Origin: Chloroflexota bacterium
GTDB lineage: Bacteria > Chloroflexota > Anaerolineae > J102
Assembly (NCBI GenBank): GCA_013151415.1
Contig: JAADII010000169.1
Coordinates: forward strand, 2,545 to 66,544
DNA: 64,000 nucleotides
Reading direction: 5' to 3'
Positions 4,089 to 59,614 of the stretch are shown piece after piece. Every line of letters starts with the position of its first letter. Within the stretch, counting starts at the first letter, position 1. The position numbers and the translations under genes were made by a program. The notes beneath the pieces are model-generated. The model worked only from the letters and a program-made list of their open reading frames with translations. It made no database searches and was not told where the DNA came from.

Positions 4089-4129
4089 GGCGGCTTCGAA
4101 AATAGCGTCCAATGTCCGAAGTCCGGGGC

Positions 4130-4195
4130 GGGGGGTTCAAGGTTTCTGGTTCAAAGTTCAAGGTTCAAGATTCAAGGTTTAAAGTTCAGGTTCGT
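4130..4195. repeat. Tandem microsatellite-like repeat, unit about GGTTCAAG (7-8 imperfect copies)
   Basis: Read directly: ggttcaaggtttctggttcaaagttcaaggttcaagattcaaggtttaaagttcaggttc. It lies in the intergenic region upstream of purL and of the TA promoter. Confidence 0.7.
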
Positions 4196-4321
4196 GTGAT
4201 GGCGCGCTTCCGCAAGCAACGATCCATCTCTTGAAGACAACGCGATATGAACCCTGAAAAAGCTCAACGCAGAGAGACACAGAGAGCGCAGAGGGAAAAA
4301 TAGCGTGCTCGGCGGACAGGG

Positions 4322-4350
4322 TTGAGAATGTAAGCAAAATCCGGTAAAAT
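4322..4350 (+). promoter_or_regulatory. Sigma70-like promoter TTGAGA-17-TAAAAT upstream of the MNT/HEPN pair
   Basis: TTGAGA at 4322-4327, a 17-nt spacer, and TAAAAT at 4345-4350. An AAGGA RBS sits 9 nt before the ATG at 4391. Confidence 0.5.
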
Positions 4351-4390
4351 AGTGGCAAGTCTTGACTCGGACGATCAAGGATAGTGGACT

Positions 4391-4795
4391 ATGCGAACTT
4401 CATACAAATATGAAGAAAAGTTGGCTCAACATCAAAAAATACATTCTGGAAAGTCCATATCAAAGCGGGACGTGAACGAAGGCCAGATTGAGCGGATCGC
4501 TCGATCCTGTCAGCGCGTTCTGGCCAAGCATTACGGCCATCGCTTGAAAGGAGTTGTTTTATATGGCTCGGCCGCTCAAAACAAAATGGACGAAGAAAGC
4601 GACATCGACTTACTCGTTCTTCTTCGCAAACCATTTGATTATTTTGCGGAATTGCGACGGATTATCGACCTACTCTATCCGGTTCAACTAGAATCTGACC
4701 GTCTGATATCCGCCAAACCGGCGGCCATTGACGAATTCGAAGCCGGCGCCATTCAACTCTATCGCAATGCCAAAATGGATGGCCACGTAATATGA
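4391..4795 (+). CDS. Minimal nucleotidyltransferase (MNT/MntA-like antitoxin component)
   Basis: NTase-fold motif LYGSAAQNKMDEESDIDLLVLL (GS...DxD). It overlaps the downstream HEPN gene by 4 nt (ATGA). Confidence 0.75.
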   Translation: MRTSYKYEEKLAQHQKIHSGKSISKRDVNEGQIERIARSCQRVLAKHYGHRLKGVVLYGSAAQNKMDEESDIDLLVLLRKPFDYFAELRRIIDLLYPVQLESDRLISAKPAAIDEFEAGAIQLYRNAKMDGHVI

Positions 4796-5187
4796 ACCAC
4801 CAGCATGAGCAGGAGATTCACGCGAGTTTGGAACGAGCGAATGCCTCGATTCAAGCAGCGAAAACACTCTTGGCCAACGCTTATCCCGATTTTGCGGCAT
4901 CCAGAGCTTATTACGCCGCCTTTTACGCCGCGACTGCTCTGCTGCTCAGCGAGGGCCTCAAGTATCGCAGGCACAGTGGAGTAATCGCTGCCATTCATCG
5001 TGAATTCGTAAAGACGGGCGAACTGAGCCAGGAGCAGGGCAAGCATTTGAACTGGCTATTCGAATTGCGCAATGTTGGGGATTATGGGATGACCCTCCAT
5101 GTAACATCAGAAACCGCGGAATCGGCCATTGCAGCCGCTCAAGACTTTCTCGACGCTGTTCAAACCTTATTGGAAAGTCGCCATTAG
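4792..5187 (+). CDS. HEPN-domain protein (HepT-like toxin component)
   Basis: The all-helical HEPN-like sequence (SRAYYAAFYAATALLLSEG..., ELRNVGDYG) is translationally coupled to the MNT gene. The region has lower GC than its flanks. Confidence 0.7.
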   Translation: MNHQHEQEIHASLERANASIQAAKTLLANAYPDFAASRAYYAAFYAATALLLSEGLKYRRHSGVIAAIHREFVKTGELSQEQGKHLNWLFELRNVGDYGMTLHVTSETAESAIAAAQDFLDAVQTLLESRH

Positions 5188-5206
5188 CCACTAATGACCG
5201 TCTGTC

Positions 5207-6748
<1,542 letters not shown>

Positions 6749-6798
6749 TCAGTAGATGAGACGCTTGGGAATCGAGCGGGATGAAGCCATGGCCGAGC

Positions 6799-7749
6799 TC
6801 ACGGAAGCAACGTCACTGGAATGCGGGTCTCGTCAATGCGACGGCCATCGCGAGGGCTTACGCCATAGACGCTGATAAGGGCCGGTGTGGGAGATGAGGG
6901 AGCGAACTCGAAATCGGCCGAAAACAAATCATACATGATCGCTCCGCCGATGCTTGTGGTTTGCTGCAACAAGGAGCCGTTGCGGTCTTGCAAGTCTATA
7001 ACCACACCCCCTTCGAATGTCCAGGAATAGCCGCTCACCTTGCCTGTGGGTCGCCACTTCTGGCCGACCCGAGGCGTAAACACATCCAACATGCGTTGTC
7101 CAGGAATGAGAACAATGGGAATGATCACTTTGTTGATTTCAGCGCCGCTGCGAGCATCTATTTCGAATAATTCCAAGACGGCCGACGACTCGCCCTCTTG
7201 CAAAGTCTCGAAACGAATGTAAGTATGAAAGAAATCATACTTCACGCCACCGCCCGCGGCAATGCGCTCAGCCAGAACTTCGCCGGTCTCCGCATCCTTC
7301 AAGCGAATGTTCACCGCGCCTTCAAATGTGCGGGAAAAGCCGATGATTTCGATAGGGCTATGGTATACGCCCTCCGCCACCGGCGAAAACACCTCAATGG
7401 CCGCAGCCGGAGGGGGCCAAGGCTTGGGAGTGGGGGTTGGTTTGGGTCTGGCTTTTTTCTTTCCCGGAATGCAAAGACGCTGGCCTACGTATATGCGATT
7501 GACGTTGCGAATGCTGTTCGCTCGCGCCAACGAACGCACCGATACGCGAAAACGCGCCGCGATTTGCGACAATACGTCCCCTTGTCTGACCACATAAACG
7601 CGGCGGCACTGGGCCGCAACCGAAGGAGCCTGGCCCAAATCGGCCTGCACTGCAACGGCACCCCCCAATGAGAAAAGCGCCGCCAACACCAACGCCAACC
7701 AGCGCAGGCGCGAACGCCTGACACGCGTTTCAACGTCCCATCGTCTCAT
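6799..7749 (-). CDS. Secreted/anchored LysM-domain protein with two Gmad2-like Ig-fold domains
   Basis: An N-terminal hydrophobic anchor is followed by a LysM motif (YVVRQGDVLSQIAARFRVSVRSLARANSI...YVGQRLCIP), a Pro/Thr linker, and two repeats of the EV(F/Y)SP...I.G..R.FEG.V..RL.D..G type. The ATG at 7749 has AGGAGG 12 nt upstream; ORF-max is a TTG at 7785. Confidence 0.6.
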   Translation of the reverse strand: MRRWDVETRVRRSRLRWLALVLAALFSLGGAVAVQADLGQAPSVAAQCRRVYVVRQGDVLSQIAARFRVSVRSLARANSIRNVNRIYVGQRLCIPGKKKARPKPTPTPKPWPPPAAAIEVFSPVAEGVYHSPIEIIGFSRTFEGAVNIRLKDAETGEVLAERIAAGGGVKYDFFHTYIRFETLQEGESSAVLELFEIDARSGAEINKVIIPIVLIPGQRMLDVFTPRVGQKWRPTGKVSGYSWTFEGGVVIDLQDRNGSLLQQTTSIGGAIMYDLFSADFEFAPSSPTPALISVYGVSPRDGRRIDETRIPVTLLP

Positions 7750-7812
7750 TGTCCTATCATCCCTCCTGATTTGAGCTGCACTCAAGTGAGGTGGAGAAAA
7801 CCGCCCTTACGA

Positions 7813-9366
7813 TTAATTTTGGGGCGTGGGCGTCGCGGCCGCGGTTTGGGACATGCCCGGAGGCAGTGCGCCCAGCCCTCGATGGGGCAGCTTTTCCAGG
7901 CGGGCCAGTTTACGGCGCGCCAATGGCAATGTCGTCCAATGATAGATCATGGCCGCGACCTGACGCAAGTGTCCTTTACGCCACCGCCTTGGGTGCAGCG
8001 CCACCCTGGCCAATCGCCGTGCATATTTCCGCGCCCGGTATTCTTTGTGCAGCGTCACATGCAACTGCCGATAAAACTCGGTTGCATATGGCCCATGGTA
8101 CAACATGGCCAGGTCCTCAGAATCTTGCCAATTTTGCTTCACCCCGAGCTGATCCTTCACTCGTTCATAAAACTTCGTGCCCGGCAAAGGATAAGACACC
8201 GACATGCCAATGTCATCGGGTTGGCAATCGCGCACCATTTGCAGCGTCTTTTCGATATCCTCTCGCGTCTCGCCGGGATAACCGAACTGCAAGAAAAACC
8301 CCACCCTGACGCCATGCCTGTGCAGCAACTCGGTCGCCTGATAAATCTGCTCCACGCGCGTGCCCTTCTCCATCGCGTCCAAAATTTTTTGTGAGCCCGA
8401 CTCAGCCCCCACCCAAACAATGTCGCAGCCGGCCCGCTTCATGGCTTCCACCTCGCCCTGGCGCAATAGCAAATCCACCCGGCTCAAACACTTGAAGGGA
8501 ACCAACGCGTCCTCTTGCGCCACCAACTCGGCGAAGCGCGTCCACCAACCTGGCTTCAGACCCACAATATCATCTGCAAACCAAATGTGATCGGGATGAT
8601 AGGTTTGCTTCAACCATTTCAATTCGGCCACCACGTTTTCGGGGCTGCGCGCATTATAACGCTGCCCCCAAATTGGCTTGGCGCACCAGTTGCAATGATA
8701 GGGACACCCTCGCGTGGTGACCATATTCATGGAATAATAGCCGTGCCGCTCCCGCCAAATGCCTCGATACCGCTCCACATCCACAAGATCCCAGGCCGGA
8801 AAAGGGAGGCTATCCACATCTTTGATGTCGGGACGGCGAGGCGTGATGATGAGGTCGGATGAAGAAGGCCGTTCGGGATGGCGCAAAAACGCCAGGCCCA
8901 GAATTTGGTCGAGGGGCATGTGAGAGCGGCCGGTGAGATGATCGAGCAGCTCGGCCAAAGTGCGCTCGCCTTCGCCAATAAGAACGAAATGCGCGCCGCT
9001 TGCCAGATAAAGGCGCGCGTGGTCAGAGGCGTCGGACCCCGCCACAATGACCGTGCACCCGCGAGCGCGGGCCATCTCGATCATGGTGAACGCGGCTTGC
9101 CTCATACGCAGCAGGCACATTTTAGAAAGATAGTTGAAGTTGTCTTCATAGATAACCGCATATTGAGGTTGCGTTTCATCCAAGGCGGCCGCCCATTCCT
9201 CCTCCGAGCTGGCCAACATGGCGTCGAAAAGAGCGACCTCATATCCACGCGCTCGCAAGAACGCGGCCGCATACATGGTCCCCAATGGCGGGTAGGGCTG
9301 CATCGCCTCCCAAAGCTTGGGATCGAAACGAAGATAGTAAGATTGGCCAAAGAGAATCTGCGCCAT
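7813..9366 (-). CDS. B12-binding-domain radical SAM protein
   Basis: An N-terminal cobalamin-binding-like region is followed by a CxxxCxxC motif (RGCPYHCNWC) and a radical SAM core. The start was set to the internal MAQILFG (ATG at 9364-9366), which overlaps the upstream gene stop by 4 nt. Confidence 0.75.
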   Translation of the reverse strand: MAQILFGQSYYLRFDPKLWEAMQPYPPLGTMYAAAFLRARGYEVALFDAMLASSEEEWAAALDETQPQYAVIYEDNFNYLSKMCLLRMRQAAFTMIEMARARGCTVIVAGSDASDHARLYLASGAHFVLIGEGERTLAELLDHLTGRSHMPLDQILGLAFLRHPERPSSSDLIITPRRPDIKDVDSLPFPAWDLVDVERYRGIWRERHGYYSMNMVTTRGCPYHCNWCAKPIWGQRYNARSPENVVAELKWLKQTYHPDHIWFADDIVGLKPGWWTRFAELVAQEDALVPFKCLSRVDLLLRQGEVEAMKRAGCDIVWVGAESGSQKILDAMEKGTRVEQIYQATELLHRHGVRVGFFLQFGYPGETREDIEKTLQMVRDCQPDDIGMSVSYPLPGTKFYERVKDQLGVKQNWQDSEDLAMLYHGPYATEFYRQLHVTLHKEYRARKYARRLARVALHPRRWRKGHLRQVAAMIYHWTTLPLARRKLARLEKLPHRGLGALPPGMSQTAAATPTPQN

Positions 9367-9368
9367 GT

Positions 9369-10292
9369 TTAGTCCTTGCTCCTTTTTTCTTCCACACCAT
9401 CGATGCGGCGAGCGTAGACGTCCAATATGCGGTGCGCGTGACCGTCGAAATGACCTTTGCACCAATCGGGCGAGAACGCGGCCTCGTCTTGATGTGGAAA
9501 CTGGTGACGGAACTTGTCGATCTTACGCGTCATTTCCCATTGTTCGGCCTTTGCGCCAAGCCGAGTGCCGAGAACCCTCTCGGCCGCGCCGCGCAAGGGA
9601 CGCCAGGCGCGAAATCGGCCGTTGAGCCGAAAGCGTCCATTCATCATGGGCGGCGGCCCCACAGCATTGGGGAGAAAATCGAACAACCAATCATTGACTC
9701 GTCGCATGCGCGTATAAACATCCATGCCAAACAAGGGGCGCATCTGCGCCAGCTCGCGAGCCGTGAAAAGATTGTGCGGCTCAACGGTCAAAGCGCGCTC
9801 GGAGAGAAAAAAATTCGGGCACAAGACCACGCCGCGACGCTCGGCCATCTTCACCAAACCCACCACCATGGCCCGGCACAACCACAAACGGCCCGGAGAG
9901 GTGACGATGAGATAATCAATATCGCCATCTTCATCCACGTTGTTGACGGCCAGTGAGCCGGTTACAGCCACCATGCGCACAAAAGGCAGCGCCTCCATGA
10001 GCGCAGCATAATGCAGCGCCTGCGGCCACAAGCGCTGAGCGACCTGCTCGCGATGCTCTCGGATCGCCACAATGCCCTCGCGCCCCGCCAATAAGATATA
10101 TCTTCCACGACGAACAAGACGCTCTCTCAGCCGCGGGCTTTGGGCGAGCGCCGCTCGCACCTCTGCAAGGGTGGCCGGCTTCCCCACCAGGTAGCGATGG
10201 ATTTCGCTCTCGGTAAGCGGATAATCGAAAACATCTGCGTAGACTACGGTCTGCAAAATGGCGGATTCCAAAGCGGAGATCATAATGGACAT
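9369..10292 (-). CDS. Hypothetical protein with a nucleotidyltransferase-fold-like motif
   Basis: 307 aa. The motif VAVTGSLAVNNVDEDGDIDYLIV resembles the GS...DxD of pol-beta-type NTases. It is translationally coupled to the downstream B12-rSAM gene. Confidence 0.45.
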   Translation of the reverse strand: MSIMISALESAILQTVVYADVFDYPLTESEIHRYLVGKPATLAEVRAALAQSPRLRERLVRRGRYILLAGREGIVAIREHREQVAQRLWPQALHYAALMEALPFVRMVAVTGSLAVNNVDEDGDIDYLIVTSPGRLWLCRAMVVGLVKMAERRGVVLCPNFFLSERALTVEPHNLFTARELAQMRPLFGMDVYTRMRRVNDWLFDFLPNAVGPPPMMNGRFRLNGRFRAWRPLRGAAERVLGTRLGAKAEQWEMTRKIDKFRHQFPHQDEAAFSPDWCKGHFDGHAHRILDVYARRIDGVEEKRSKD

Positions 10293-10611
10293 GATGAGTT
10301 GCGTAGAGCAAAAATGACCTTATGAGCGAGGCGGCTTGACGCATCAAGCATGGAAACGAGTTTCTCCGATAGGGCCAAACGCATGGGAGAATGGACCCGT
10401 TCCTGGCTTGCAAGCTTTGCAAGCCCCTACGCCTCGCGACTCAGGCGCTGTCGTAGAAAAAACGTCCGGATAAGCGCGGGCGAAATCGCGTATGCATCTA
10501 TTATTACGCCTGCACTGGTGGGATAGATGCCTGTCAAATGGGATGCACTATCGTATCGCGAAGCAAAGCTCAGGAGCAAACATGCGTTCGACAAGGCTTT
10601 CACCACCGACA

Positions 10612-10640
10612 TTGACAAAAAGCCTCCATCCCCTTACGAT
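10612..10640 (+). promoter_or_regulatory. Candidate sigma70 promoter TTGACA-17-TACGAT upstream of the TIR-STAND gene
   Basis: TTGACA at 10612-10617 and TACGAT at 10635-10640, about 100 nt upstream of the ATG at 10743. Confidence 0.3.
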
Positions 10641-10742
10641 AAATCAGCCAGAGAATTGCCTGCTCTCCCCGCGAGGACGCTCTCGGCCCCATCGAGAGAC
10701 GCGCCTCCTATCCCCGCGTCGTCAAGGGGGCGGGAAATAAAC

Positions 10743-13241
10743 ATGAACGGGTCACAAGAATCGCTCTACGATATATTCATCTCTTATGCGCAGGCCGATC
10801 GCGCCTGGGTGGAAGGGTACTTGATCGACGCGTTGGAATCGGCCGGCGCGCGCGTGCTTTCGGAAGAGACGTTTCGCTTGGGCGCGCCGCGTATTCTTGA
10901 ATTCGAGCGGGCCCTCCAGCAAAGCCATCGCGTGTTGCTTGTGCTATCACCCGCTTATTTCGCCGCGGATTTCCAACGCTTCTTTGATATTCTCGCCCAA
11001 AGCTATGGCGCAGAAACCGGCGCGTGGCCGGTCATTCCCCTCATTCTGCATCCGGTGGACTTGCCTCCGCGGCTGGCGCAGCTCGTGGCGTTGGACGCCA
11101 GCGAGCCGGAACGTTGGGAAGAGGTGGTGGCCGCTCTATTGCGCGACCTGAAACGCCCGCGGCCCGCGGCCCCAAAAATCCCGCCTTGCCCCTATCCTGG
11201 CATGGCTCCATTCACCGAAGCCGACAGCAAGCATTTTTTTGGCCGTGAGCGCGAAATCGAAGAATCGGTTCAGCGCCTACGCGTCCATCCTTTCCTGGCC
11301 ATCATCGGCCCTTCGGGCTGTGGAAAATCCTCTCTGGTCTTTGCAGGGTTGTTGCCTGCGTTGCGCCAAAGCTCTCTATTTGGCAAGGGCGAGTGGCTGG
11401 TGCGCACCCTTCGCCCGGGGGAAACGCCTCACAGCGCGTTGCAAGCCCTGCTCGCCGACATCCCGTCGCCTGGCGAGCGCGGCCCTTTTCTGCTGGTGGT
11501 GGATCAGTTCGAGGAAACCTTCACCCTGGCCGGAGATGAGCGGACGGCATTTCAGAATGCGCTTCTCGCTCTCATCGGCCAACCCAACGCCTACCTGACG
11601 ATCACCGTTCGGGCGGACTTCTATCCTGACCTGATGACTTCGCCGCTTTGGCGAGAGATTCAGGCCCATCGCCTGGAAGTGCCGCCTTTGGGCGAAGAGG
11701 GACTTCGAGAAGCCATTGTGCGGCCGGCCGAAAGCGTGGGCGTGTATGTCGAATCAGCCCTGGTGGAGCGGTTGGTGGCCGATGCGGCCGGCGAACCGGG
11801 CATCCTTCCCTTCGTTCAAGAGACGCTGGTCTTGCTATGGGACAAACTCGAGCGTCGATTTCTCCCCCTACGCGCGTATGAAGCTTTGGTTATGCCGCGT
11901 AAAGCTTATGGCCAGCCGCCTTTGATCGGTTTGCAAGCGGCCATGGCCCGCCGCGCTGAAGCGGCGTTCTCGACGCTCACGACCGAACAACAACGCATCG
12001 CGCGGCGCATGTTCCTACGCCTCATTCAGTTTGGCGAGGGTCGCTCGCATACGCGTCGTCGGCAGCCGGTCGCCGCGCTTCTGGCGGCAGAGGACGACCC
12101 ACTCCAGGTGGAAGCCACCCTCGCTCATTTGACGCAAGCCCGTCTCATCACCTTGAGCGGCGAAAGGGAGGGGCGGATGCGCATGGCGGACCTGGCGCAC
12201 GAGGCCCTGATCGAAGGCTGGCCCAGACTGGCTGCATGGGTGCAAGCGCACAAAATGGCCGAAATGGAGCGCCGACGACTGAGGGCCCTGGCCCAACGCT
12301 GGCTCGATCTCCATCGTCGGGGAGGATTGCTGGATGAGACCGAGCTTATCCTGGCCCAACGTTGGCTGACGAGTCAGGCCGCGAAAGATGTGGGCGTGGA
12401 TGCGGCCATCCTCGAATTTGTCCGGGCCAGCGAAGCCGAGCTGAAACGACGAAAACGAATGCGTTGGCTGCGACCGCTCGCGGCGGTCATGGCGGTCATG
12501 CTATTGGCGGCGTCGGGCTTTCTGGCCTATCGGGGCTTTCTGAAGGCGCAAACTCTGCGCGCCAGCCCAATGGTGCAGTTCGATGCTGGTGAAGCTATCA
12601 TCGGAACCGACGATCCCTTGGCCGAAGCGTGGGAGCGTCCCCAACGCAGCGTGCGTCTGGAGGGATTTGCTCTGGAGAAATATGAAGTCAGCAATCGTCT
12701 TTACCGCAATTGCGTGCGAGCCGGGGCGTGTGATGAACCCAAATCTGACCTGGAGCGTTACCAAAACGCTCAATATGCGCTTCACCCTGTTGTGGGCGTA
12801 ACGCCGCGACAGGCCCAGCAATATTGCCAATGGTTGGGGCGGCGCTTGCCCACATCGGTGGAATGGGAGCGGGCCGCCAGGGGCGCCAACGGTCGCGCCT
12901 GGCCATGGGGCGATGAAGCGCCTCGGCCAAATCAAGTGCGCATGCCTGTTCCCATAGACGCGCCGCCTTTGCCCGGGCCCATCGCGGTCACATCGGGCGA
13001 GCAGTCGGGCGTTTCACGCGAAGGCCTGCATCACCTCGCGGGCAATGTATGGGAGTTTGTGGTCCTGGTGGATGAAAACTGTCAGGGCCTTGAATGCCAT
13101 CAACCAAAGGCTTCGAACTGGCGGCCGGCCATCATGGGCGGAAGCTATGAATCCTCTATTATGCGCATCACCACTTTTTATACAATTGGCATCGAATCGA
13201 GCAGTCCGGAGTACGGTTTCCGCTGCGCTCAGCTCGAATGA
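10743..13241 (+). CDS. TIR domain - STAND/NACHT-like NTPase - transmembrane helix - FGE/sulfatase-modifying-factor-like domain protein
   Basis: Start is the ATG at 10743 with AAGGGGG 15 nt upstream; ORF-max is 10527. TIR: YDIFISYAQADRAWVEGYL. NTPase: FFGREREIEE..IIGPSGCGKSS (Walker A) and LLVVDQFEE (Walker B). TM: KRRKRMRWLRPLAAVMAVMLLAASGFLAYRGF. C-terminal FGE fold: GFALEKYEVSN..YR.., PVVGVTPRQAQQYCQWLGRRLPTSVEWERAARG, MGGSYESS...EYGFRCAQ. Confidence 0.8.
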   Translation: MNGSQESLYDIFISYAQADRAWVEGYLIDALESAGARVLSEETFRLGAPRILEFERALQQSHRVLLVLSPAYFAADFQRFFDILAQSYGAETGAWPVIPLILHPVDLPPRLAQLVALDASEPERWEEVVAALLRDLKRPRPAAPKIPPCPYPGMAPFTEADSKHFFGREREIEESVQRLRVHPFLAIIGPSGCGKSSLVFAGLLPALRQSSLFGKGEWLVRTLRPGETPHSALQALLADIPSPGERGPFLLVVDQFEETFTLAGDERTAFQNALLALIGQPNAYLTITVRADFYPDLMTSPLWREIQAHRLEVPPLGEEGLREAIVRPAESVGVYVESALVERLVADAAGEPGILPFVQETLVLLWDKLERRFLPLRAYEALVMPRKAYGQPPLIGLQAAMARRAEAAFSTLTTEQQRIARRMFLRLIQFGEGRSHTRRRQPVAALLAAEDDPLQVEATLAHLTQARLITLSGEREGRMRMADLAHEALIEGWPRLAAWVQAHKMAEMERRRLRALAQRWLDLHRRGGLLDETELILAQRWLTSQAAKDVGVDAAILEFVRASEAELKRRKRMRWLRPLAAVMAVMLLAASGFLAYRGFLKAQTLRASPMVQFDAGEAIIGTDDPLAEAWERPQRSVRLEGFALEKYEVSNRLYRNCVRAGACDEPKSDLERYQNAQYALHPVVGVTPRQAQQYCQWLGRRLPTSVEWERAARGANGRAWPWGDEAPRPNQVRMPVPIDAPPLPGPIAVTSGEQSGVSREGLHHLAGNVWEFVVLVDENCQGLECHQPKASNWRPAIMGGSYESSIMRITTFYTIGIESSSPEYGFRCAQLE

Positions 13242-13414
13242 CTATTTGAGCTCGGTGAAAATCATTTTGCCCGCCTTTTTTACGCCATTTTTGCATACGA
13301 ATTGAGTGGATTTGGCGCATGTCTCCCTTTTTCTGTGCGACAAATCGCCACCGCGACCTCTGTGGTCGAAGCCGGTGACGTTCTTTTACATTATGAAAAG
13401 AAGGAGGTGGAATC

Positions 13415-14506
13415 ATGAAACGCCCTTTAGTTGTCGCGGTGATCATCGTGACGGCGCTCCTCGTGGCATTGTTTTTCTGCGGTCTTTTTTCATCGCGGCC
13501 GCCCACGAAACAGCCTTCAAAGGTTTCTCTATCTTCTCTCGACCAAAACGCGCCCCCGGACAAGCCTTCGCCCACGCCCTGCAACGAACCATTGCCTGAA
13601 CTCTGCCCTGATTGGACGCCCGATCCCCAAGTGGCGGAAAGCATCGGCTCTTTTCCCGAAATCACGCACGAACTTTGTCCTCCGGACGCCGAGGCGACTC
13701 AAAAACCGATCTTTACAAACGAGGTGGTCTTTCGAGAAGGCAAATTCGTGCGACCGGGCAATTTCATCAACGAACAAGGAGAGCTTTTCAGCATTATCGT
13801 CAGTGGTGCAGATGAAATGAGCGTGCGTCAATACACCGACAACATGCTTATGTGCGCTGACGCATTTTTCGCAGACCAGGCGTCGCCAGCCAAACCAGAC
13901 GAGTTGGACGAGTTCGCCGCGAATTCGTTGGATGCCTTGCTCGCCATGCCCGAATCGCTGCTTATCGAGATCGATTACATTGCGCAGAGCGGCGTGACAA
14001 CGCCAGACGCGGAGAAGCTGCTCTATGCAATGGCCGCGCAAAATGTTTCCGTCCCTCCCTTGCCTTTGGCGGATTTCCAGAATCAACCCGACCCACTAAT
14101 CGTGCAATTGGAGCTTACTCTAGCCGATGAGGTGTTCTTGGAATTCCAAACCGATCGAATCGTCGATTTCATCATCGATCCCGCTATCAACCGCGCCGTG
14201 TATCATAATTATCGCTCAAAATGCCAGATGAGGGCTCGGGTGACCGTGCGCATGGCCGAATCGCAGGGCGCGGGCAGTGTGTCGGCCCTTCTCTACCGAA
14301 ATGGATTTCCCGTACAGAGTCGCATATTGAACAAAGACGAAGGGATCGTCAAGGCGACCTTGCGTCATTCCAGTGCGCCCCAGCACACCACCTACGATTT
14401 TGGCGTTTACGGGCGTCGAAACCAAAGCCGTTATCGCATTAGCGGATCGTGGGTCAAATCCTACAATGCCTCGGTGCCCTCGGGCGGCGGCTCGGTGTGC
14501 CCCTAG
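13415..14506 (+). CDS. Hypothetical secreted/membrane-anchored protein
   Basis: A strong RBS (GAAGGAGGTGG) precedes it. An N-terminal TM/signal segment (VVAVIIVTALLVALFFCGLF) is followed by a Pro-rich linker. No recognisable catalytic motif. Confidence 0.5.
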   Translation: MKRPLVVAVIIVTALLVALFFCGLFSSRPPTKQPSKVSLSSLDQNAPPDKPSPTPCNEPLPELCPDWTPDPQVAESIGSFPEITHELCPPDAEATQKPIFTNEVVFREGKFVRPGNFINEQGELFSIIVSGADEMSVRQYTDNMLMCADAFFADQASPAKPDELDEFAANSLDALLAMPESLLIEIDYIAQSGVTTPDAEKLLYAMAAQNVSVPPLPLADFQNQPDPLIVQLELTLADEVFLEFQTDRIVDFIIDPAINRAVYHNYRSKCQMRARVTVRMAESQGAGSVSALLYRNGFPVQSRILNKDEGIVKATLRHSSAPQHTTYDFGVYGRRNQSRYRISGSWVKSYNASVPSGGGSVCP

Positions 14507-14612: not shown

Positions 14613-15371
14613 ATGGTCATGAACGAATCGACAGCTTTACGAACCGAACTGAATGAGCAAAAAGCGTTCAAGCAAAAGCTGGAGCGCGAGAAGCTGACCG
14701 CGGGCGCGGTGGAACGCGCGCGCATCGAGATCGAGATCGAACGCGCCGACAAGCGCATTCGCGAGCTCGAGTGGGCTCTGGACGCGCTGGCCGAGGAACG
14801 AGAACGGATGCAGCAAAAGGACAAGGACAAAGAGAAAACCCCGGGCGGGGAAATCACGCGGAAGCGCGAAAAAGCTGCTCGAAGCAATGCTCATGTCTAT
14901 GACGTTTATATCAGCTTCGCGGAAACCGAACCGGATGCGCGTTGGGTGTGGGAGACCCTCATTCCGCGGCTGGAAGCAGAAGGTTTGCAAGTGGCTGTGG
15001 CCGAGGACGTGGTGAGGCCGGGCGTGGCCAGGGTGACCGGGGTCGAACAGGGCGTGCGCGAGGCGCGGCGCACGCTCATTGTGCTGACGCGACATTATAT
15101 CGACAATCGCTGGGCGCAGTTCGATAGTATCCTGGCCCAAACCCTTGGCTGGCAAGAAGGCGCGGCCCGCGTGATCCCCGTTCTGTTGGAAAGCATCGAT
15201 CTCGACCATCCTCCAGCCTGGATCCCCCATCGCCTCGGCCCCAATTTCGTTCGCCCCATCGATCTGAGTCCGCAGGCAATCGCCAGGGGACGATCCAATC
15301 CTCGCCGCGACCCCTGGCGCCGTCTTGTGGAAACGCTGAAATCGCCTTTACAGCCGCTTTTCAAGCCTTGA
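14613..15371 (+). CDS. Coiled-coil - TIR domain protein
   Basis: An N-terminal charged coiled coil (about 90 aa, EREKL...EIEIERADKRIRELEWALDALAEERERMQQ) is followed by a TIR_2-like domain (YDVYISFAETEPDARWVWETL...RTLIVLTRHYIDNRWAQFDSILAQ). Confidence 0.6.
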   Translation: MVMNESTALRTELNEQKAFKQKLEREKLTAGAVERARIEIEIERADKRIRELEWALDALAEERERMQQKDKDKEKTPGGEITRKREKAARSNAHVYDVYISFAETEPDARWVWETLIPRLEAEGLQVAVAEDVVRPGVARVTGVEQGVREARRTLIVLTRHYIDNRWAQFDSILAQTLGWQEGAARVIPVLLESIDLDHPPAWIPHRLGPNFVRPIDLSPQAIARGRSNPRRDPWRRLVETLKSPLQPLFKP

Positions 15372-15385
15372 ATCATTCATTTATC

Positions 15386-16042
15386 ATGGGCGCTCGATCT
15401 CTCAGGACATATGTGCTTTTGAAAAACGCCGCGAATGTGGGATTGTGTTTCGAGCATCCCCCTTGGTGGGATGTGAGTCGGTTGGTCGCGCCGCTTCCCC
15501 ACCGTCGCGTAACGTTGTCGCCCGATGACCGAAGCGCATGGCTCCTTTCTTGGGCGCATCTTCTCACCTGGAGCAAACAACAAGGCCAGTGGGTTGAGAA
15601 TGTCCCTTATATGAAAGCGCCATGCGAAGCGAGCTCGCAGGAGCGACGCGGCGTGCTGCGCGCCTTGCGGCAGGCCGAGTGGCTCGTCATCGATCAGGAG
15701 CGGGTCTGGGTTATCCCAAAGGAGCCGGGCGAGGCTTGCCGCATATTCGAAGGTCCGTCCTGGTGGAGCGCGCTCGCGGCCGAACACCTGGACCTACTCT
15801 CGCAGCGTCGCATCGATGTGAACAACCCGCTCTGGGTGGATTATGTGTATCTGTTCACGCCTGAAGAGGCCCTGACCATCGACGCCGCGGCCCGGGAGCG
15901 CTGGAAAGCTTATTGTCGCGAGGTCTATTCTCGGAAGCTGACCCGGCATGAGATCAGCGAAATGGCCCGATTCAAACAGGCGCTGCAACAGGCGGTCTGG
16001 GTGACGCTTTATGACTACGAATGGGAATCCGGGCTGGCGTGA
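15386..16042 (+). CDS. Hypothetical protein, Trp-rich, no recognisable domain
   Basis: It begins 14 nt after the TIR gene stop (or overlaps it from a TTG at 15368). Codon usage looks coding. Start and authenticity are uncertain. Confidence 0.4.
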   Translation: MGARSLRTYVLLKNAANVGLCFEHPPWWDVSRLVAPLPHRRVTLSPDDRSAWLLSWAHLLTWSKQQGQWVENVPYMKAPCEASSQERRGVLRALRQAEWLVIDQERVWVIPKEPGEACRIFEGPSWWSALAAEHLDLLSQRRIDVNNPLWVDYVYLFTPEEALTIDAAARERWKAYCREVYSRKLTRHEISEMARFKQALQQAVWVTLYDYEWESGLA

Positions 16043-16149
16043 ACCTGTTGTTTGTGTGGCCAGCGCATGACGGAGATGAACGAAGCGACCATCGTCGAGT
16101 TAGAGGCAATCCCGCCCGAAACCAAGCAAAAGTCGGAGAGCACGCAACC

Positions 16150-16821
16150 ATGACCACAGTACGCGAACAAGCGCTCACCTGTGCGGTGTGCGGACACACC
16201 GAGAAGCACACCGTGCTTGTTTCCTCGAGCGCATTTGGCGCGTCCGATCTGGACACGCGGCCGCCGCCATTGATGCGATTTACATTGCCCTTTCAGATTC
16301 AATGTTGCCCCGCATGCGGGTATTGTGCGCCCAATATATCCCATGCGCCGGATCGCGATATCGCGGCCTCGATTGTGCTGAGCAAGGACTACCAGGCTCA
16401 GCTAAGGGACGCGGAGCTTCCCTATCTGGCGAGCATGTTTCTATGCGCGAGCGACATCCAGAAAGCATTGGGAAACGATGCGGATGCAGGATGGTTCGCG
16501 CTTCGCGCCGCGTGGGTCTGCGATGATGAGGAGCGCGATCAGGGGGCGAGGCAATGCCGGCTGCGAGCCGTGGAGCGATTCACCCAAGCGCGCGAGCGCG
16601 GCCAGCCATTCGCGGACCAACCAGGCGCAGAAGAAGCTATTCTCACCGACCTGTTGCGTCGTAGCGGTCGTTTCGACGAAGCCACGGCCATGATCCGGCG
16701 CGGCCTGGCGCGAACGCCCGAGGACGTGATTCGCGAGGCGCTTCTGTTCCAACGCGCGTTGTGTGAACAAAGGGATGTGGCGCGCCATACTTTGGACGAA
16801 GTGTTGAAGGGTGATGCGTGA
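16150..16821 (+). CDS. Hypothetical zinc-ribbon protein (CxxC...CPxC) with helical C-terminal region
   Basis: The ATG at 16150 has a GGAGAG RBS. It carries CAVCGH...CCPACGYC. Its stop overlaps the prmC start region. Confidence 0.45.
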   Translation: MTTVREQALTCAVCGHTEKHTVLVSSSAFGASDLDTRPPPLMRFTLPFQIQCCPACGYCAPNISHAPDRDIAASIVLSKDYQAQLRDAELPYLASMFLCASDIQKALGNDADAGWFALRAAWVCDDEERDQGARQCRLRAVERFTQARERGQPFADQPGAEEAILTDLLRRSGRFDEATAMIRRGLARTPEDVIREALLFQRALCEQRDVARHTLDEVLKGDA

Positions 16822-28536: not shown

Positions 28537-31500
28537 ATGATAGGTGCCCGAGGACGATATATTTCGTTGATGGTGTTGGTGATGGGCGTATTGTTCATGT
28601 TGTTGGCGCCGGCCCTTGCCACGCCGGCCTACGCCCAAGGCGGTCCTCCGGTGGTGTTCACCGGTAATGTCCCTATGGATTTTCCCGCGGGTTCGGCCTT
28701 TCTATACGATCCGGGCCTCTCGCCTCCCGCCAATCCTCCCGAATGGGATGTTTCCATGCCCAACACCTGGCCTCTGGAGCAACAAGTGAGCGGTTGGGAC
28801 ATGGAGTATCTCGCCTTCTTTTATGATGGCCCTTCTGATGTCATGTATGTGGGAATTCAGTACTTCGATGCAGGCACGGTGTTCGAGTTTTTGGGCGGCG
28901 CGGTGACTCATACATTGATTTCCGATGTCATCGCCGGCGATGCAGACCATGATGGGGATCCGGGAGGCGCAAGCACCTATTTGCAGGCGTCGGGCGGCGT
29001 GGATATGCCGGATATTGGCAATGGGGAAGCCATTGTGTTGATCATCGACACCAACCTGGACGGCGCGGGCGACGCGATTGTAGGCGTGCCTCAGACGGGT
29101 GACGTCACCAACTTCCATATCGCGCAATTCAGCCCGCCTGATCCTGCGAATCCACTGGCCGATCCGGCCAATTCGTTTGGCGCGCCCCTCACCGGCTCGA
29201 CGGCCACGCTGTATGCCAACCCCACCATCACCCAACCCGATCTGGAATTCAGCATCAGCAATTTTTCCAATCTGCCCAATCTCAATTTCGACCCCGCGGT
29301 GGATTGCGTTTTCGAGGCCAACTTTCTTGCTTTTAGCGGCAGCATTGTGGATGTAGCGCCGGGCGAAGACTATCTCCCCGTGCCCGAACAGCTTGCCAAC
29401 TTCAGCTTCGACGTGGTGCGACCCGAGGCCGAGGTGACGAAAAGCCTGGTCAACACGACGCCTATCGAGAACGGCGATACGGTTACTTATGAAATCGTCA
29501 TCAACAATCCGGGCTGCTCCACCATGAGCGCGATTCCGCTCACCGACACCTTCGATGCAAACATTTTGCAATACGCAAACGCGACCGTCGCCCCCGATCT
29601 TGTAGACAACCTGAACGGATTGCTGGTCTGGAACGATGTCACCACGACATTGGGCGATGTGCTCACAGGGAACGCAATCACCATCACCGTCGAATTCACG
29701 GCCACACAAGCCACGCCCGTGGGCTCGCCTACGGTCAACCAGGCCAGCGTGGCCGGCGCCACCGACACCAACGGTTATGAAGCGCCCGCCTCTTCCTCGA
29801 GCACAGGTGTGGATGTATATGAGGCCGGCCTGAGTCTGGTGAAGACGGCCGGGACAGTGGGCGATGGGGAAATCTGGTATGTGGACGCCAGCACCGCGCC
29901 CACTAATGTGACTTTCACCTATGTTCTAACCAACACCGGCAACACCTATCTCACCGATCTCACCATCACCGATGACCACGGCACGCCGAGCAATTCGGGC
30001 GATGATGTCACCATAACCTCAGTCGAGTGCCCCGCCCTGGCCGGGCCCCTTGCACCGAATGGGTCGGTCACCTGTACGGCCGACATTTCTGTCAGCGGAC
30101 CATTCCCGGTGACCAACACGGCCACGGTTACAGGAACGCCAAGCAACGAGGTCGGCTCGCCTCTCGCCGGCATCACCCCGCCCAGCGCGGGCGACGATGC
30201 CGTGGTGGACGCATTCACGCCCAATCTCGCATTCACCAAGCTGGCCGGTAATGCGCCCGATGGCGGCGTTTACGAGATCACCAGCCCCGAGATCGTCACT
30301 TACACCTACATCATCACCAACACCGGCGATAGCTACCTGAGCAGCATGGTCATCACCGATGACCTGGGCACGCCGACCGACCCTGTCGATGACCTGGTCA
30401 TTGATTCAGGCTCATGCGCCGGTTTGGCTGGGCCGCTCGCGCCCTTGGGCTCCGTAATCTGTACGGCTTTCATCTCGGTGAACGCCGACGTCACCAATGT
30501 GGCCGCGATCTCGGCCAACCCCACCGATAACTTGGGCGCGGACCTGCCCGGCCTGGACGATCAAACCGCGCAGGACGACGCCATTGTCAACCTCATCGCG
30601 CCGGATTTGAGCTTGCAAAAGACGGTCTATCTCGGCGACGACAACGGCGTTTCTTGCCCGGGCGGCGAACTTGTCTTCGCTCCTTCCGGCTACGTGGTCA
30701 CTTATTGCTTCGAAGTCAGCAACATTGGCGACACTTATCTGGATAGCATTGTCATCACCGATACTGCGCTCAGCATCCCCACCTCGACCACACCCATCCT
30801 GCTTTCCGGGACAACCCCGCTCGCGCCCGGCAACACAGCTGTTTATTACATCACCGACACCATCGCCAGCGACCTGATAAACACGGCCCTGGTGAGCGCC
30901 AATCCCACCGATAACCTCGGCGCCGACCTGCCCCAATATCCCGACAATCCCACCGACTCGGACACAGCCGAGGTGCAGGTCGCGCCCGATCCCACCGTTT
31001 CTGTGAGCAAAACCCTCCTCCCTCCCCTGGTGACGCCCATCGCCGTAACCGACACCATCACCTTCGAGGTGGTCATCACCAACACTGGCCAAACCACCCT
31101 GACCACCTGGTCGGTGGTGGATGACGGCTTCACCACCGGCATGAGCCTGGTCGCGGCCACTCCCACACCCGATAGCGCGGGCCCGCCCATTGCATGGAAT
31201 GCATCATTGCCCGCGCTCGCGGCCGGAGATTCCTTCACCATCACAGTGCAGTTTTTGGTTACGGCTTCGGGAACGCATACAAACACGGTCACGGTGAACG
31301 GCCAAGACGAATTCGGTCGATCCATAACCGAGACCGTCGCCTCTTCAACGGTGGACTTTGTCGATCTCGATTACGGCGATGCGCCCGATCCCACCTATCC
31401 CACCCTTTTGGTCAACGACGGCGCCGCGCATGCGTTGGTGAGCAACGGGCCTTTCATGGGCGCGTGCATCGATCCTGAAACCAACGGCCAGCCCTCCGCC

Positions 31501-59383: not shown

Positions 59384-59614
59384 GAGAGCCTCCTGCTGAG
59401 GGATGAAGGGGAGCCTGATTGTACTATGAGTGCGGATTTTTTGCGATCTTAATAGCACATAAGGATTGAAGCGTATGGACAACGCACCATCTCTTATTCT
59501 TCACCCACGGTTCTCTTACATTATGCAAACTTTTCTATGGTAGGGTGGTAGTGTTAAAGTAAACGAGAATAGGCAAACAAGCATAACGATCATCCCCCCA
59601 CTTCTGAGGAAATC

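Follow-up and report, generated by a model that had tools for sequence, protein, structure and literature searches.

Can a bacterial STAND NTPase span the cytoplasmic membrane, read a cue on the outer side and signal through TIR domains on the inner side? The question is raised by one gene in the 64,000-nucleotide stretch of Chloroflexota DNA analysed here, the whole of which is called the window and to which all coordinates refer. A preliminary description, made from the letters alone, had proposed that the encoded protein combines a TIR domain, a STAND NTPase, a transmembrane (TM) helix and an FGE-sulfatase-type sensor outside the membrane. The gene and a candidate promoter lie as follows.

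10743..13241, + strand: TIR-nSTAND1-TM-FGE-like gene, 832 amino acids (NOX63579.1), stop codon included
10612..10640, + strand: promoter-like TTGACA-17-TACGAT, 10 of 12 matches, a consensus match only

The plus-strand ORF runs from 10527 to 13241 and would encode an extended form of 904 amino acids. Four lines of evidence support ATG 10743 as the likely start: an identical 832-residue database protein (P0001, NOX63579.1, from a Chloroflexota MAG), homologs whose N-termini begin at the same place, an SD-like G-rich stretch (AAGGGGG, read from the sequence) about 13-19 nt 5′ of this ATG, and the promoter-like site, which falls inside the extended ORF and so speaks for 10743. The AlphaFold2 model of the 832-residue protein has a mean pLDDT of 90.7. 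The proposed four-part architecture is borne out. The TIR, NTPase and FGE assignments all exceed the curated Pfam cut-offs and follow one another in effector-NTPase-sensor order, the quoted motifs (FFGREREIEE, GPSGCGKSS, DQFEE and GGSY...EYGFRC) are all present, with the Walker motifs invariant among homologs, and the model contains a continuous helix (residues 554-607) followed by an FGE fold (residues 610-832). These domain, motif and TM features are far beyond chance.

11190..12320, + strand: nSTAND1 STAND NTPase module, residues 150-526, full-length match to Pfam PF20703

The PF20703 match covers profile positions 1-377 of 379 and scores 324.9 bits against a cut-off of 27.1. FFGREREIEE lies at residues 165-174, Walker A (GPSGCGKSS) at residues 189-197 (nt 11307-11333) and Walker B (VVDQFEE) at residues 252-258 (nt 11496-11516). 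Among 120 homologs, G189, S191, G192, G194, K195, S196 and S197 of Walker A and Q255 and E257 of Walker B are invariant, and D254 is invariant in a 52-sequence alignment (A1).

12402..12563, + strand: continuous helix, residues 554-607 (AlphaFold2 model and hydropathy)

Topology was tested by hydropathy and charge statistics. The protein has exactly one TM-grade segment, with a Kyte-Doolittle (KD) 19-residue maximum of 1.94 at residues 578-596, in a TM core of about residues 576-598 (nt 12468-12536) that is preceded by a K/R cluster (KRRKRMR, residues 568-574). No N-terminal signal peptide was found ahead of the 575-residue NTP-dependent module. The TM segment of NOX63579.1 is the least hydrophobic of the family, the homologous segments reaching KD 2.5-3.3. 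A single TM segment occurs at the equivalent place in about 115 of 120 homologs, whatever their C-terminal domain, and follows nSTAND1 in 132 of 141 non-redundant representatives, with further hydrophobic segments in only 7. In the locus survey, it is found in all 16 complete FGE-type genes and in 27 of 31 other genes. It is evident that the helix noticed in the preliminary description is present but not special to the FGE version, being general in the TIR-nSTAND1 clade with WD40, TPR and other C-termini. The segment is fixed in position, not in sequence (entropy 2.39 bits). The number of K and R per 15 residues on each side is 5.0 inside versus 2.7 outside (N > C in 40 of 52 homologs; p = 3e-8, Wilcoxon test), and in the larger set of 141 representatives it is 4.8 versus 2.3 (N > C in 114, N < C in 8). 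The Cys content is 0.67% inside versus 2.29% outside, and four Cys are kept in 51-52 of the 52 homologs; among more distant nSTAND1-FGE proteins a clean correlation between TM and Cys was not found. The FGE fold is also found in the periplasmic lipoprotein PorK (Foldseek match). Conserved TM segment and positive-inside bias together make the predicted N-in/C-out topology well supported in silico, and the placement of the sensor outside, which had been argued from the positive-inside rule in this one protein, is upheld family-wide.

12567..13238, + strand: predicted extracytoplasmic FGE/pFGE-like (C-type-lectin-fold) domain, residues 609-832 (Pfam, PDB and Cys statistics)
13137..13214, + strand: most variable stretch, residues 799-824, equivalent to the ligand-binding variable region (VR) of DGR-type CLec proteins

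Pfam places FGE-sulfatase at residues 609-829 with 115.6 bits, above the curated cut-off, and Foldseek matches the AlphaFold2 fold at residues 610-832 to human FGE/pFGE with E = 1e-15, the target-normalised TM-score to human FGE being 0.68. Among PDB sequences, the inactive paralog pFGE/SUMF2 matches best. C657, C663, C695 and C828 are conserved, and GGSY...EYGFRC spans residues 799-828. The catalytic Cys pair, which we take to be C336/C341 in human FGE, is absent from the corresponding loop in 52 of 52 homologs. Judged by these residues, the FGE-like domain is non-catalytic and disulfide-capable. Residues 799-824 differ among homologs in both sequence and length, and their entropy is 2.75-2.96 bits versus 1.1-1.3 bits in the TIR and NTPase. 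The ectodomain has about twice the evolutionary rate of the cytoplasmic modules, with a peak in this VR-equivalent loop, which is probably the ligand-binding surface.

10767..11147, + strand: TIR domain, residues 9-135 (Pfam TIR_2, TLR TIR alignment and column statistics)
14613..15371, + strand: partner TIR gene, 252 amino acids, an N-terminal coiled coil of about 95 residues followed by a TIR

We then come to the N-terminal TIR and its neighbor. Pfam TIR_2 matches residues 11-132 with 63 bits against a cut-off of 28, and the flavodoxin-like TIR fold is present, with PDB matches to TLR, TcpB and AbTIR TIRs, beta/alpha alternation and a pLDDT of about 90 in the AlphaFold2 model. In NOX63579.1, the canonical catalytic-Glu position in helix alphaC (W-x-x-x-E) is occupied by F81, next to a conserved D82. 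According to the alignment columns, the canonical Glu is absent from 66 of 66 STAND-borne TIRs, with T, I, A, V or G at the position. An Asp or Glu one residue further is found in 56 of these 66 (49 Asp and 7 Glu) and might itself be catalytic; the E91 column is 100% acidic among the STAND TIR homologs. The canonical position is Glu in 40 of 41 partner TIRs versus 0 of 66 STAND TIRs. The sole non-Glu case among the 41 is the partner in the window, which has Asp there and no caspase; its TIR domain (residues 96-246, nt 14898-15350) is homologous to the TIR half of caspase-TIR partners. Both the STAND TIR and the partner TIR have TLR TIRs as their best PDB sequence matches. Among loci with at least 1.5 kb of flank, 23 of 30 have a partner TIR within 2 kb (9 of 13 FGE-type and 14 of 17 other). 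The partner is usually a caspase-TIR, its N-terminus varying among Peptidase_C14, CHAT, AAA_35, a coiled coil or none, and in several loci a single caspase-TIR is flanked by two sensors. No partner TIR was found in L004/L005 and L036, whose flanks extend about 8 kb to either side. STAND genes of this family are usually paired with a separate TIR gene, the receptor TIRs lacking the canonical Glu and the partner TIRs, except that in the window, bearing it. The preliminary description had this STAND fire a cytoplasmic TIR; the cytoplasmic placement is retained, and firing by its own TIR is rendered doubtful by the missing Glu and its retention in the partners.

13415..14506, + strand: accessory gene "dnP", 363 amino acids (NOX63580.1), directly downstream of the STAND gene

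In the dnP protein, an N-terminal signal-anchor helix is followed by a disordered linker, then by an alpha/beta domain and by a beta-sandwich that weakly resembles carbohydrate-binding modules (CBM). It is encoded within 300 nt downstream in 10 of 16 FGE-type loci versus 0 of 23 other loci, and a signal anchor or lipobox was identified in 7 of 10 strict dnP family members. Since roughly half of the dnP-like genes found downstream are shortened, each having its own RBS but no export signal, dnP backs the outside topology only partly. The upstream neighbor (9369-10292, − strand) has a sub-threshold NTP_transf_2 match (E = 0.008, 16.9 bits against a cut-off of 21). Among the approximately 35 window ORFs for which a Pfam scan was made (some 20 more lay outside it), no defence-island signature was found, the Pfam-assigned neighbors being housekeeping genes except for one MNT/HEPN pair. 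PADLOC gave no system-level match, only weak TIR and P-loop matches (PDC-S66, mad3 and ThsB) and no Avs model. None of the findings that would have refuted the preliminary description was obtained. Conserved housekeeping surroundings of the orthologs would have been one of them; the flanking genes differ between homolog loci, and the genomic positions of these loci are not conserved.

The family comprises 12,227 cluster representatives at E <= 1e-30, and the named sources are mostly filamentous Chloroflexi and cyanobacteria. No close relatives were found on viral contigs. The TIR-NTPase part stays constant while the sensor type (FGE, WD40 or TPR) is swapped. For these proteins, the NCBI name "nonheme iron enzyme" is misleading.

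The reading that we favor, with slightly more confidence than doubt, is an outside-sensing, single-pass receptor of the STAND/NLR type whose own TIR brings in a catalytic TIR from a partner protein. Residues 1-575 (TIR, nSTAND1 and helical arm) would be cytoplasmic, and one helix would cross the cytoplasmic membrane, on the outer face of which the C-terminal FGE/C-type-lectin-like domain of 225 residues would be exposed. Signaling would begin with binding of an outside ligand: a molecule from an invader or a surface, or else the state of dnP, the exported protein encoded alongside. Binding would cluster or re-orient the receptors via the long juxtamembrane/TM helix and so lead to NTP-dependent oligomerisation of the nSTAND1 modules. 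The resulting array of Glu-less TIRs would serve as a scaffold that recruits and activates the separately encoded sister TIR with its catalytic acid, a coiled-coil-TIR in the window and a caspase-TIR or CHAT-TIR in most relatives. NAD+ cleavage and/or proteolysis by the partner would then cause growth arrest or cell suicide, in what may be an anti-phage or anti-invader role in filamentous bacteria. The sensor is cytoplasmic in characterised STANDs such as Avs, and we accordingly know of no experimental precedent for activation of a STAND across a membrane.

The same observations can be read in other ways. It is rather unlikely, in our estimate, that the protein is a self-contained, Avs-like abortive-infection protein with its own TIR as the NADase effector and the neighboring TIR independent or auxiliary. 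The effector-NTPase-sensor order fits Avs and bNACHT logic (PMC10907252), an acidic residue does lie next to the canonical position (D82) and at E91, and L004/L005 and L036 show no partner TIR in their flanks, which suggests that the STAND protein may work alone; against this, the canonical Glu is missing from every STAND TIR and kept in nearly all partners, the partner lies close by in most loci, some loci have two sensors per caspase-TIR, and PADLOC has no Avs match. It is also unlikely that the system is not primarily antiviral and that its lectin-like domain instead monitors self, namely wall or sheath glycans, exported dnP or the surface of a neighbor cell, thereby controlling, in multicellular bacteria that form filaments, either cell death (developmental or triggered by envelope damage) or the recognition of kin. 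The concentration of the family in Chloroflexi and cyanobacteria points that way, as do the report that multicellular bacteria are enriched in nSTAND1 and FGS systems (Kaur et al. 2021, PMC8195603), the housekeeping context in the window, the lack of close relatives on viral contigs, and the FGE-specific exported dnP, which could be a guarded self-ligand and has a weakly CBM-like beta-sandwich. The hypervariable putative binding loop, the swapping of sensors and the non-conserved positions are typical of arms-race genes, however, as TIR and caspase effectors are of immune systems. Self-surveillance and defence are compatible with each other.

Two further readings concern the ectodomain itself. 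That the hydrophobic stretch does not cross the membrane, so that the whole protein is cytoplasmic and the FGE-like domain an intracellular lectin-like sensor of invaders, appears very unlikely. The abstract of Kaur 2021 terms NPCBM and FGS sensors intracellular, 36 TIR+nSTAND1+FGS entries in its tables have no TM (PMC8195603), the segment in the window is of moderate hydrophobicity, and the short dnP forms lack export signals. These points are outweighed by the strongly hydrophobic homologous segments, conserved in position and not in sequence, by the strong positive-inside bias, and by the "TM" annotated at this place 412 times in the Kaur source data (PMC8195603). Still more improbable is that the protein belongs with the SUMF1/EgtB/PvdO enzymes, as its NCBI name and the Pfam FGE-sulfatase match would have it, or is a DGR-diversified target protein, as related nSTAND1-CLec proteins are DGR targets and the fold matches the DGR protein TvpA. 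The enzyme part is effectively refuted by the absence of the Cys pair from all 52 homologs and by NCBIfam scores far below the cut-offs of 350-420, the matches being partial (EgtB 50 bits against a cut-off of 360, SenA 48 and GldK 42 bits). As to a DGR, no template repeat of 12701-13300 was found in the 64-kb window and no 3′-end copy in 15 homolog loci, no reverse-transcriptase family was found among the scanned window ORFs, and the loop has indels and is not Asn-rich.

How far does the favored receptor resemble known systems? The architecture is already catalogued computationally and is not new as an entry. TIR+nSTAND1+FGS was described, and nSTAND1+TM+X is what the 412 source-data entries list, in Kaur 2021 (eLife, PMC8195603), where nSTAND1 was defined. 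The lectin-sensor systems of that paper (nSTAND1/NACHT-FGS) share the NTPase clade and the order N-terminal effector, NTPase and C-terminal FGS, with TIR as a listed N-terminal option and nSTAND1+TM+BetaPropeller/TPR/FGS annotated. They differ in that FGS is treated as intracellular and membrane topology is never discussed, and in that many are DGR-linked, unlike the TIR-nSTAND1-TM clade (15 loci and the window). The exact string TIR+nSTAND1+TM+FGS is absent, and so is a caspase+TIR neighbor of such genes, from the part of its source-data tables considered here. The DGR STAND-CLec antigen sensors (Dore, PNAS 2024, PMC10907252) also have nSTAND1/NACHT with a C-terminal CLec/FGE and sometimes a TIR, and periplasmic CLec domains were predicted for some of these DGR targets, among them one in a Thiohalocapsa locus; in contrast to them, the window gene has no template repeat in the window, no RT family among the Pfam-scanned ORFs, loop indels and other partner genes. 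Avs1-7, bNACHT and the STANDs of a 2026 Nature survey (PMC13581612) share the tripartite effector-STAND-sensor logic. That survey illustrates STANDs with FGE-sulfatase and WD40 sensors, and its text has no discussion of membranes or periplasm. Characterised antiviral STANDs sense phage proteins inside the cell, whereas here a membrane is predicted between sensor and NTPase.

Partner genes offer further comparisons. Type IV Thoeris (Rousset 2025, bioRxiv 10.1101/2024.10.24.620036) likewise combines a TIR and a caspase-like protease in one module, but these are separate, signal through diffusible N7-cADPR and have no STAND, whereas relatives here fuse caspase and TIR and carry a second TIR on a STAND receptor; the window lacks the caspase gene beside the module that Type IV Thoeris would require. 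In the EACC1 two-gene system (Kaur, eLife 2020, PMC7159879), caspase+nSTAND1+TM+beta-propeller proteins are among the partners and are said to act "in proximity to the membrane"; upstream of the window gene, nothing resembling an EACC1 gene is apparent, and the effector here is a TIR, not a fused caspase. TM Ser/Thr kinases (bioRxiv 10.1101/2025.01.12.632604) also have FGE-sulfatase after the TM region, with a kinase instead of a TIR. Like animal TLRs with their TIR adaptors (MyD88), the receptor would have an outside pattern-binding domain, a single TM and a cytoplasmic TIR that would recruit a TIR. TLRs differ in being type I, not N-in/C-out, in having LRRs in place of an FGE-like ectodomain, and in lacking a STAND NTPase between TIR and TM. 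Among plant TIR-NLRs (RPP1/ROQ1), the TNL RPP1 aligns structurally with the TIR-NBD part (Foldseek). Beyond the shared TIR and STAND domains, the relationship to TLRs and plant TIR-NLRs is analogy, not membership. No experimental study of the TIR-nSTAND1-TM-FGE architecture was found in the literature, in agreement with the preliminary description, to which the present analysis adds the family-wide TM, the partner TIR gene and the Glu split between partner and STAND TIRs.

To our knowledge, every bacterial STAND immune receptor studied by experiment (Avs, bNACHT and their relatives) detects phage proteins within the cell, and the 2026 survey takes the same view. If this clade reads an extracytoplasmic cue, bacteria would possess a second way of innate sensing, which would operate at the cell surface before genome entry and would need STAND activation across a membrane without direct autoinhibition between sensor and NTPase. 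A broader claim, possible though rather doubtful, is that thousands of STAND/NLR-like proteins are transmembrane pattern-recognition receptors, this one included, in which an outside sensor (FGE/lectin-like, WD40 or TPR) would drive oligomerisation of the NTPase at the cytoplasmic face and a catalytically silent TIR would then nucleate a caspase-fused catalytic TIR, with dnP as co-receptor or guarded bait. The Glu-less receptor TIRs and Glu-bearing, caspase-fused partner TIRs provide a concrete, testable bacterial example of TIR as adaptor, which bears on the origin of TLR/MyD88 and apoptosome designs. The 832-residue protein may therefore resemble a bacterial hybrid of Toll-like receptor and NLR, and, if the reading is true, the family would correspond, in prokaryotes and bound to a membrane, to the logic of TLR-MyD88 and the apoptosome, and could detect threats before they enter the cell.

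The STAND gene lies in a + strand ORF spanning 10527..13241 of the window. The start ATG at 10743, which gives a protein of 832 aa, matches the N-termini of homologs in the alignment and is also favoured by a promoter-like sequence (TTGACA-17-TACGAT at 10612-10640) located within the longer ORF. The preliminary description had read this gene as a TIR-STAND NTPase with a single TM helix and an FGE-type sensor domain, and this observation is confirmed. All of the assigned domains score above the Pfam curated cut-offs.

Domains of the STAND protein (Pfam)
aa 11-132, TIR_2, 63 bits
aa 150-526, nSTAND1 (PF20703), 324.9 bits, full profile
aa 609-829, FGE-sulfatase, 115.6 bits

Both Walker motifs (A and B) quoted at that stage are found and are nearly invariant among 120 homologs. 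Only one TM-grade segment is present (KD-19 maximum 1.94 at 578-596), with KRRKRMR on its N-terminal side, as had been described. In an AlphaFold2 model built from a 52-sequence alignment (mean pLDDT 90.7), an unbroken helix at 554-607 holds the hydrophobic stretch and is followed by an FGE-like fold. In Foldseek, human FGE and pFGE match the C-terminal domain (E = 1e-15), as do TvpA, a DGR protein, and PorK, a periplasmic lipoprotein of the T9SS; the plant TIR-NLR RPP1 matches the TIR-NTPase part. The PHROG profile phrog_923 (unknown function, 990 positions) matches aa 250-577, covering the second half of the NTPase and the helical arm (E = 2.6e-46), and therefore related STAND modules occur in annotated phage or prophage proteins. 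A viral origin of the STAND gene itself was rejected, as no close relative was found on a viral contig.

Of the 120 best homologs, about 115 have a single TM-grade segment just past nSTAND1, and this holds for FGE, WD40 propeller, TPR and BNR-like C-termini alike. When 117 fetched loci were surveyed and de-duplicated, all 16 complete FGE-type genes (classed by their C-terminal domain) had the segment, as did 27 of the 31 other genes. An exhaustive search yielded a non-redundant set of the top 150; of its 141 evaluable members, 132 have the segment, and just 7 of these 132 have extra hydrophobic segments. The position of the segment is conserved and its sequence is not (entropy 2.39 bits), which is what we would expect of a lipid-facing span. 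The 15 residues on its N side contain 5.0 K+R versus 2.7 on its C side, with N exceeding C in 40 of 52 homologs (Wilcoxon p = 3e-8); the non-redundant set gives 4.8 versus 2.3, with the N side richer in 114 members and poorer in 8. Because the 575-residue NTP-dependent N-terminal part has no signal peptide and must remain cytoplasmic, the C-terminal domain is predicted to lie outside. The Cys content (0.67% inside, 2.29% outside) is supportive of this placement and not decisive. In the ectodomain, 51-52 of the 52 homologs share four Cys, which all TM-bearing clade members keep; as a topology marker, conserved Cys pairs were nevertheless taken as supportive only, since no clean TM/Cys correlation is seen in distant nSTAND1-FGE proteins. 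TM conservation, charge bias and composition, as judged from hydropathy and charge statistics, agree with the N-in/C-out topology proposed in the preliminary description, and we consider that topology highly probable.

The gene is real, and it is part of a multi-gene module, with a downstream TIR partner and an accessory gene, dnP, that had been missed.

The module and the ORFs that follow it in the window
10743-13241 (+), STAND gene, NOX63579.1, 832 aa
13415-14506 (+), dnP, NOX63580.1, 363 aa
14613-15371 (+), partner TIR, a coiled-coil-TIR protein of 252 aa, two genes downstream of the STAND gene
15368-16821 (+), two same-strand ORFs of 224 aa and 266 aa

The partner TIR of the window matches the PADLOC candidate system PDC-S66 (E = 2e-12). 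Its equivalent in homolog loci is a Peptidase_C14 (caspase)+TIR protein of ~415 aa, whose gene adjoins the STAND gene or sits one gene off and whose TIR half is ~46% identical to the window partner. When only loci with at least 1.5 kb of flank on each side are counted, a partner TIR is found within 2 kb in 9 of 13 FGE-type and 14 of 17 other-type loci. The N-termini of the partners are diverse, being caspase, CHAT, AAA_35, unknown, coiled coil or none. In some homolog loci (L035 at 2610-10526, L043, L052, L058, L063 and L078), a single caspase-TIR lies between two TIR-nSTAND1-TM sensors, the C-terminal domains of which are different or duplicated (WD40 and FGE). This gene order suggests that several receptors may have one common effector. 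The metagenomic locus L054 (2399-5915 and 15044-20777) contains an FGE-type sensor, a WD40-type sensor and a caspase-TIR, together with two more TIR-containing ORFs with unknown extra domains, and has the look of a small TIR-centred island. In L038, the gene for the closest homolog, which is 75% identical, ends directly before a short tandem GCAGGTT(T) repeat run that is followed by an assembly gap (4236-4340). The 224-aa ORF of the window has no family match and the 266-aa ORF has weak DUF2225/TPR matches; both were placed outside the module because they do not recur in homolog loci.

The accessory gene dnP belongs to a fast-evolving family. It is found within 300 nt downstream of 10 of 16 FGE-type genes versus 0 of 23 other-type genes (one-sided hypergeometric p ~1.3e-5, our own arithmetic), and three more FGE-type loci have weaker dnP matches directly downstream. 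A signal anchor or lipobox opens 7 of the 10 strict members, including that of the window. Among the strict members, at least three are short forms, which lack an export signal and carry an RBS of their own.

Short-form dnP genes in homolog loci
L004, 10698-11414
L006, 10608-11240
L098, 13052-13810

Similar short downstream genes are present in the FGE-type loci L001, L085 and L036. Stop-codon readthrough as a way of joining FGE to dnP was rejected for the short-form loci, because each short form has a strong RBS and start of its own; in L006, two stops separate the FGE gene from the short dnP. Both the long (exported) and the short forms adjoin TM-bearing FGE-type sensors, a mismatch of compartments. 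As independent proof of an outside compartment, dnP was thus only partly successful, given the short forms without export signals. No Pfam, PHROG or PADLOC match was found for dnP. Its AlphaFold2 model is of moderate confidence (pLDDT 63) and consists of a TM helix, a disordered linker, an alpha/beta domain and a beta-sandwich, the last with weak CBM/jelly-roll-like matches in Foldseek.

The preliminary description had allowed that orthologs in conserved housekeeping contexts, with no defence-island signature and no phenotype, would speak against it. The flanking genes differ among homolog loci, and therefore the module is not part of a housekeeping operon; nor is it in a defence island in the window, the rest of which is ordinary chromosome (PurQ/PurL, IMPDH, MoaA, CysRS, malic enzyme, thiolase). 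Several other features were observed.

Other features of the window
4391-4795 (+) and 4792-5187 (+), overlapping MNT-type nucleotidyltransferase/HEPN pair, toxin-antitoxin-like
28537-35499 (+), 2320-aa ORF with repeated SdrD_B, GEVED, DUF7507, DUF11 and CarboxypepD_reg domains
57458-59482 (-), 674-aa protein with a Neur_chan_LBD match at aa 360-548 (E = 2e-13)

The MNT/HEPN pair, ~5.5 kb upstream, is the only defence-like element near the STAND gene and matches the PADLOC candidate systems PDC-S09 (E = 6e-25) and PDC-M05B. In its domains, the 2320-aa ORF resembles a giant surface protein or adhesin.

Annotation of the FGE-like domain as a SUMF1/EgtB/PvdO enzyme was rejected. NOX63579.1 is without the catalytic residues of FGE-type enzymes, a Cys pair in the equivalent of the FGE catalytic loop is found in 0 of 52 full-length homologs, the best PDB sequence match is SUMF2/pFGE, the inactive paralog, and the NCBIfam models EgtB, SenA and GldK reach 42-50 bits against cut-offs of 350-420. 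On this evidence the domain is non-enzymatic, so the NCBI product name of NOX63579.1 is misleading. The catalytic-loop equivalent, aa 799-824, varies more than any other part of the protein (entropy 2.75-2.96 bits versus 1.1-1.3 bits in the TIR and NTPase) and is the counterpart of the variable region with which DGR-type C-type-lectin-fold proteins bind their ligands. The literature on nSTAND1/CLec proteins prompted a reading as a DGR target, which was also rejected. Neither the 64-kb window nor any of 15 homolog loci yielded a template-repeat copy of the 3′ end of the STAND gene, no reverse-transcriptase family was found among the ~35 window ORFs covered by the Pfam scan (~20 ORFs lay outside it), and the loop differs in length among homologs and is not Asn-rich.

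The two kinds of TIR differ at the canonical catalytic position (W-x-x-x-E). Alignment with TLR TIRs puts F81 of the STAND protein at this position and an Asp at +1. Among 66 unique STAND-borne TIRs, the position is occupied by T, I, A, V or G, with Glu in 0 of 66, and 56 of the 66 have an acidic residue (Asp or Glu) at +1. In contrast, Glu is found in 40 of 41 unique partner TIRs, the lone exception being the window partner, which has Asp and keeps the Trp. The STAND-borne and partner TIRs are otherwise near sisters and have the LAQ(S/T)...E(G/T) signature in common. This split argues for a scaffolding or adaptor role of the receptor TIR, with the partner TIR as the catalytic or effector-bearing unit. 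Since the window partner has no protease and has Asp for Glu, the output of this module may be weaker or different.

Evidence supports three elements of a mechanism. The STAND protein is predicted to be single-pass, its TIR and NTPase cytoplasmic and its lectin-like domain exposed outside; that domain is a predicted binding module, not an enzyme, and its putative binding loop evolves fastest; and the STAND gene is genetically coupled to a sister-TIR gene, usually with a caspase-fold protease. The steps from ligand clustering through cell arrest are what we infer. An outside ligand would cluster or re-orient the receptors via the rigid juxtamembrane/TM helix, permitting NTP-dependent oligomerisation of nSTAND1. 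Direct sensor-NOD autoinhibition is assumed for soluble STANDs; here it would be excluded, because the membrane keeps the sensor from touching the NTPase. The receptor-TIR array would then template assembly of the partner TIRs, completing active sites in the manner of the asymmetric TIR-TIR interfaces of SARM1 and plant TNL resistosomes and/or bringing caspases together, and cleavage of NAD+ and/or proteolysis would arrest the cell.

This model of an outside-sensing receptor, TIR array and partner effector is, as a whole, held with moderate confidence. A self-contained NADase receptor is doubtful though far from negligible: the +1 acid of the STAND-borne TIRs may itself be catalytic, and the canonical Glu is confined to the partners. 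Surveillance of self, envelope or kin instead of antiviral sensing, which overlaps with the outside-sensing model, is slightly less probable again; no defence island surrounds the gene in the window. That the STAND protein is wholly cytoplasmic is improbable in view of the TM and charge data, even though the short dnP forms lack export signals, and an enzyme or DGR target is the least probable reading, for all the FGE fold and the Foldseek match to TvpA.

By membership, the STAND protein belongs to the nSTAND1 STAND NTPases; it is neither an FGE nor an EgtB enzyme, is not recognised by PADLOC as an Avs, to which it had been likened, is not detectably a DGR target, and is not a member of type IV Thoeris, in which a TIR is linked via N7-cADPR to a separate caspase-like effector (10.1101/2024.10.24.620036). 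Kaur et al. 2021 (PMC8195603) defined nSTAND1 and reported STAND-FGS proteins whose N-terminal effectors include TIR, terming these 'intracellular invader-sensing lectin-like' systems. Its source data list nSTAND1+TM 412 times (BetaPropeller 278, TPR 22 and FGS 4 among them) and TIR+nSTAND1+FGS 36 times; its text has no discussion of membrane topology, and neither TIR+nSTAND1+TM+FGS nor a caspase+TIR neighbour of such genes is in the accessible part of its tables. Caspase+STAND+TM proteins were placed within a 'membrane-associated' EACC1 system (Kaur et al. 2020, PMC7159879). Dore et al. 2024 (PMC10907252) reported nSTAND1/NACHT-CLec proteins as DGR targets, one CLec being predicted periplasmic, and described CLec-STANDs as experimentally uncharacterised. 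A 2026 Nature STAND survey (PMC13581612) depicts FGE-sulfatase and WD40 sensors, is framed on intracellular recognition and has no discussion of membranes. FGE-sulfatase also follows a TM region in bacterial Ser/Thr kinases (10.1101/2025.01.12.632604). Because the gene and architecture are already in databases and published tables, the protein is not categorically new.

The clade is large (12,227 representatives at E <= 1e-30 in the exhaustive search), and its explicit reading as a group of transmembrane receptors with outside sensors appears undescribed in the searchable literature, as do the conserved pairing with caspase/CHAT-TIR partners and the FGE-specific dnP gene. The nearest functional analogy of the STAND protein and its partner is a TLR plus a TIR adaptor. 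The division between a Glu-less receptor TIR and a Glu-bearing partner TIR, which likewise appears undescribed there, is the strongest new result.
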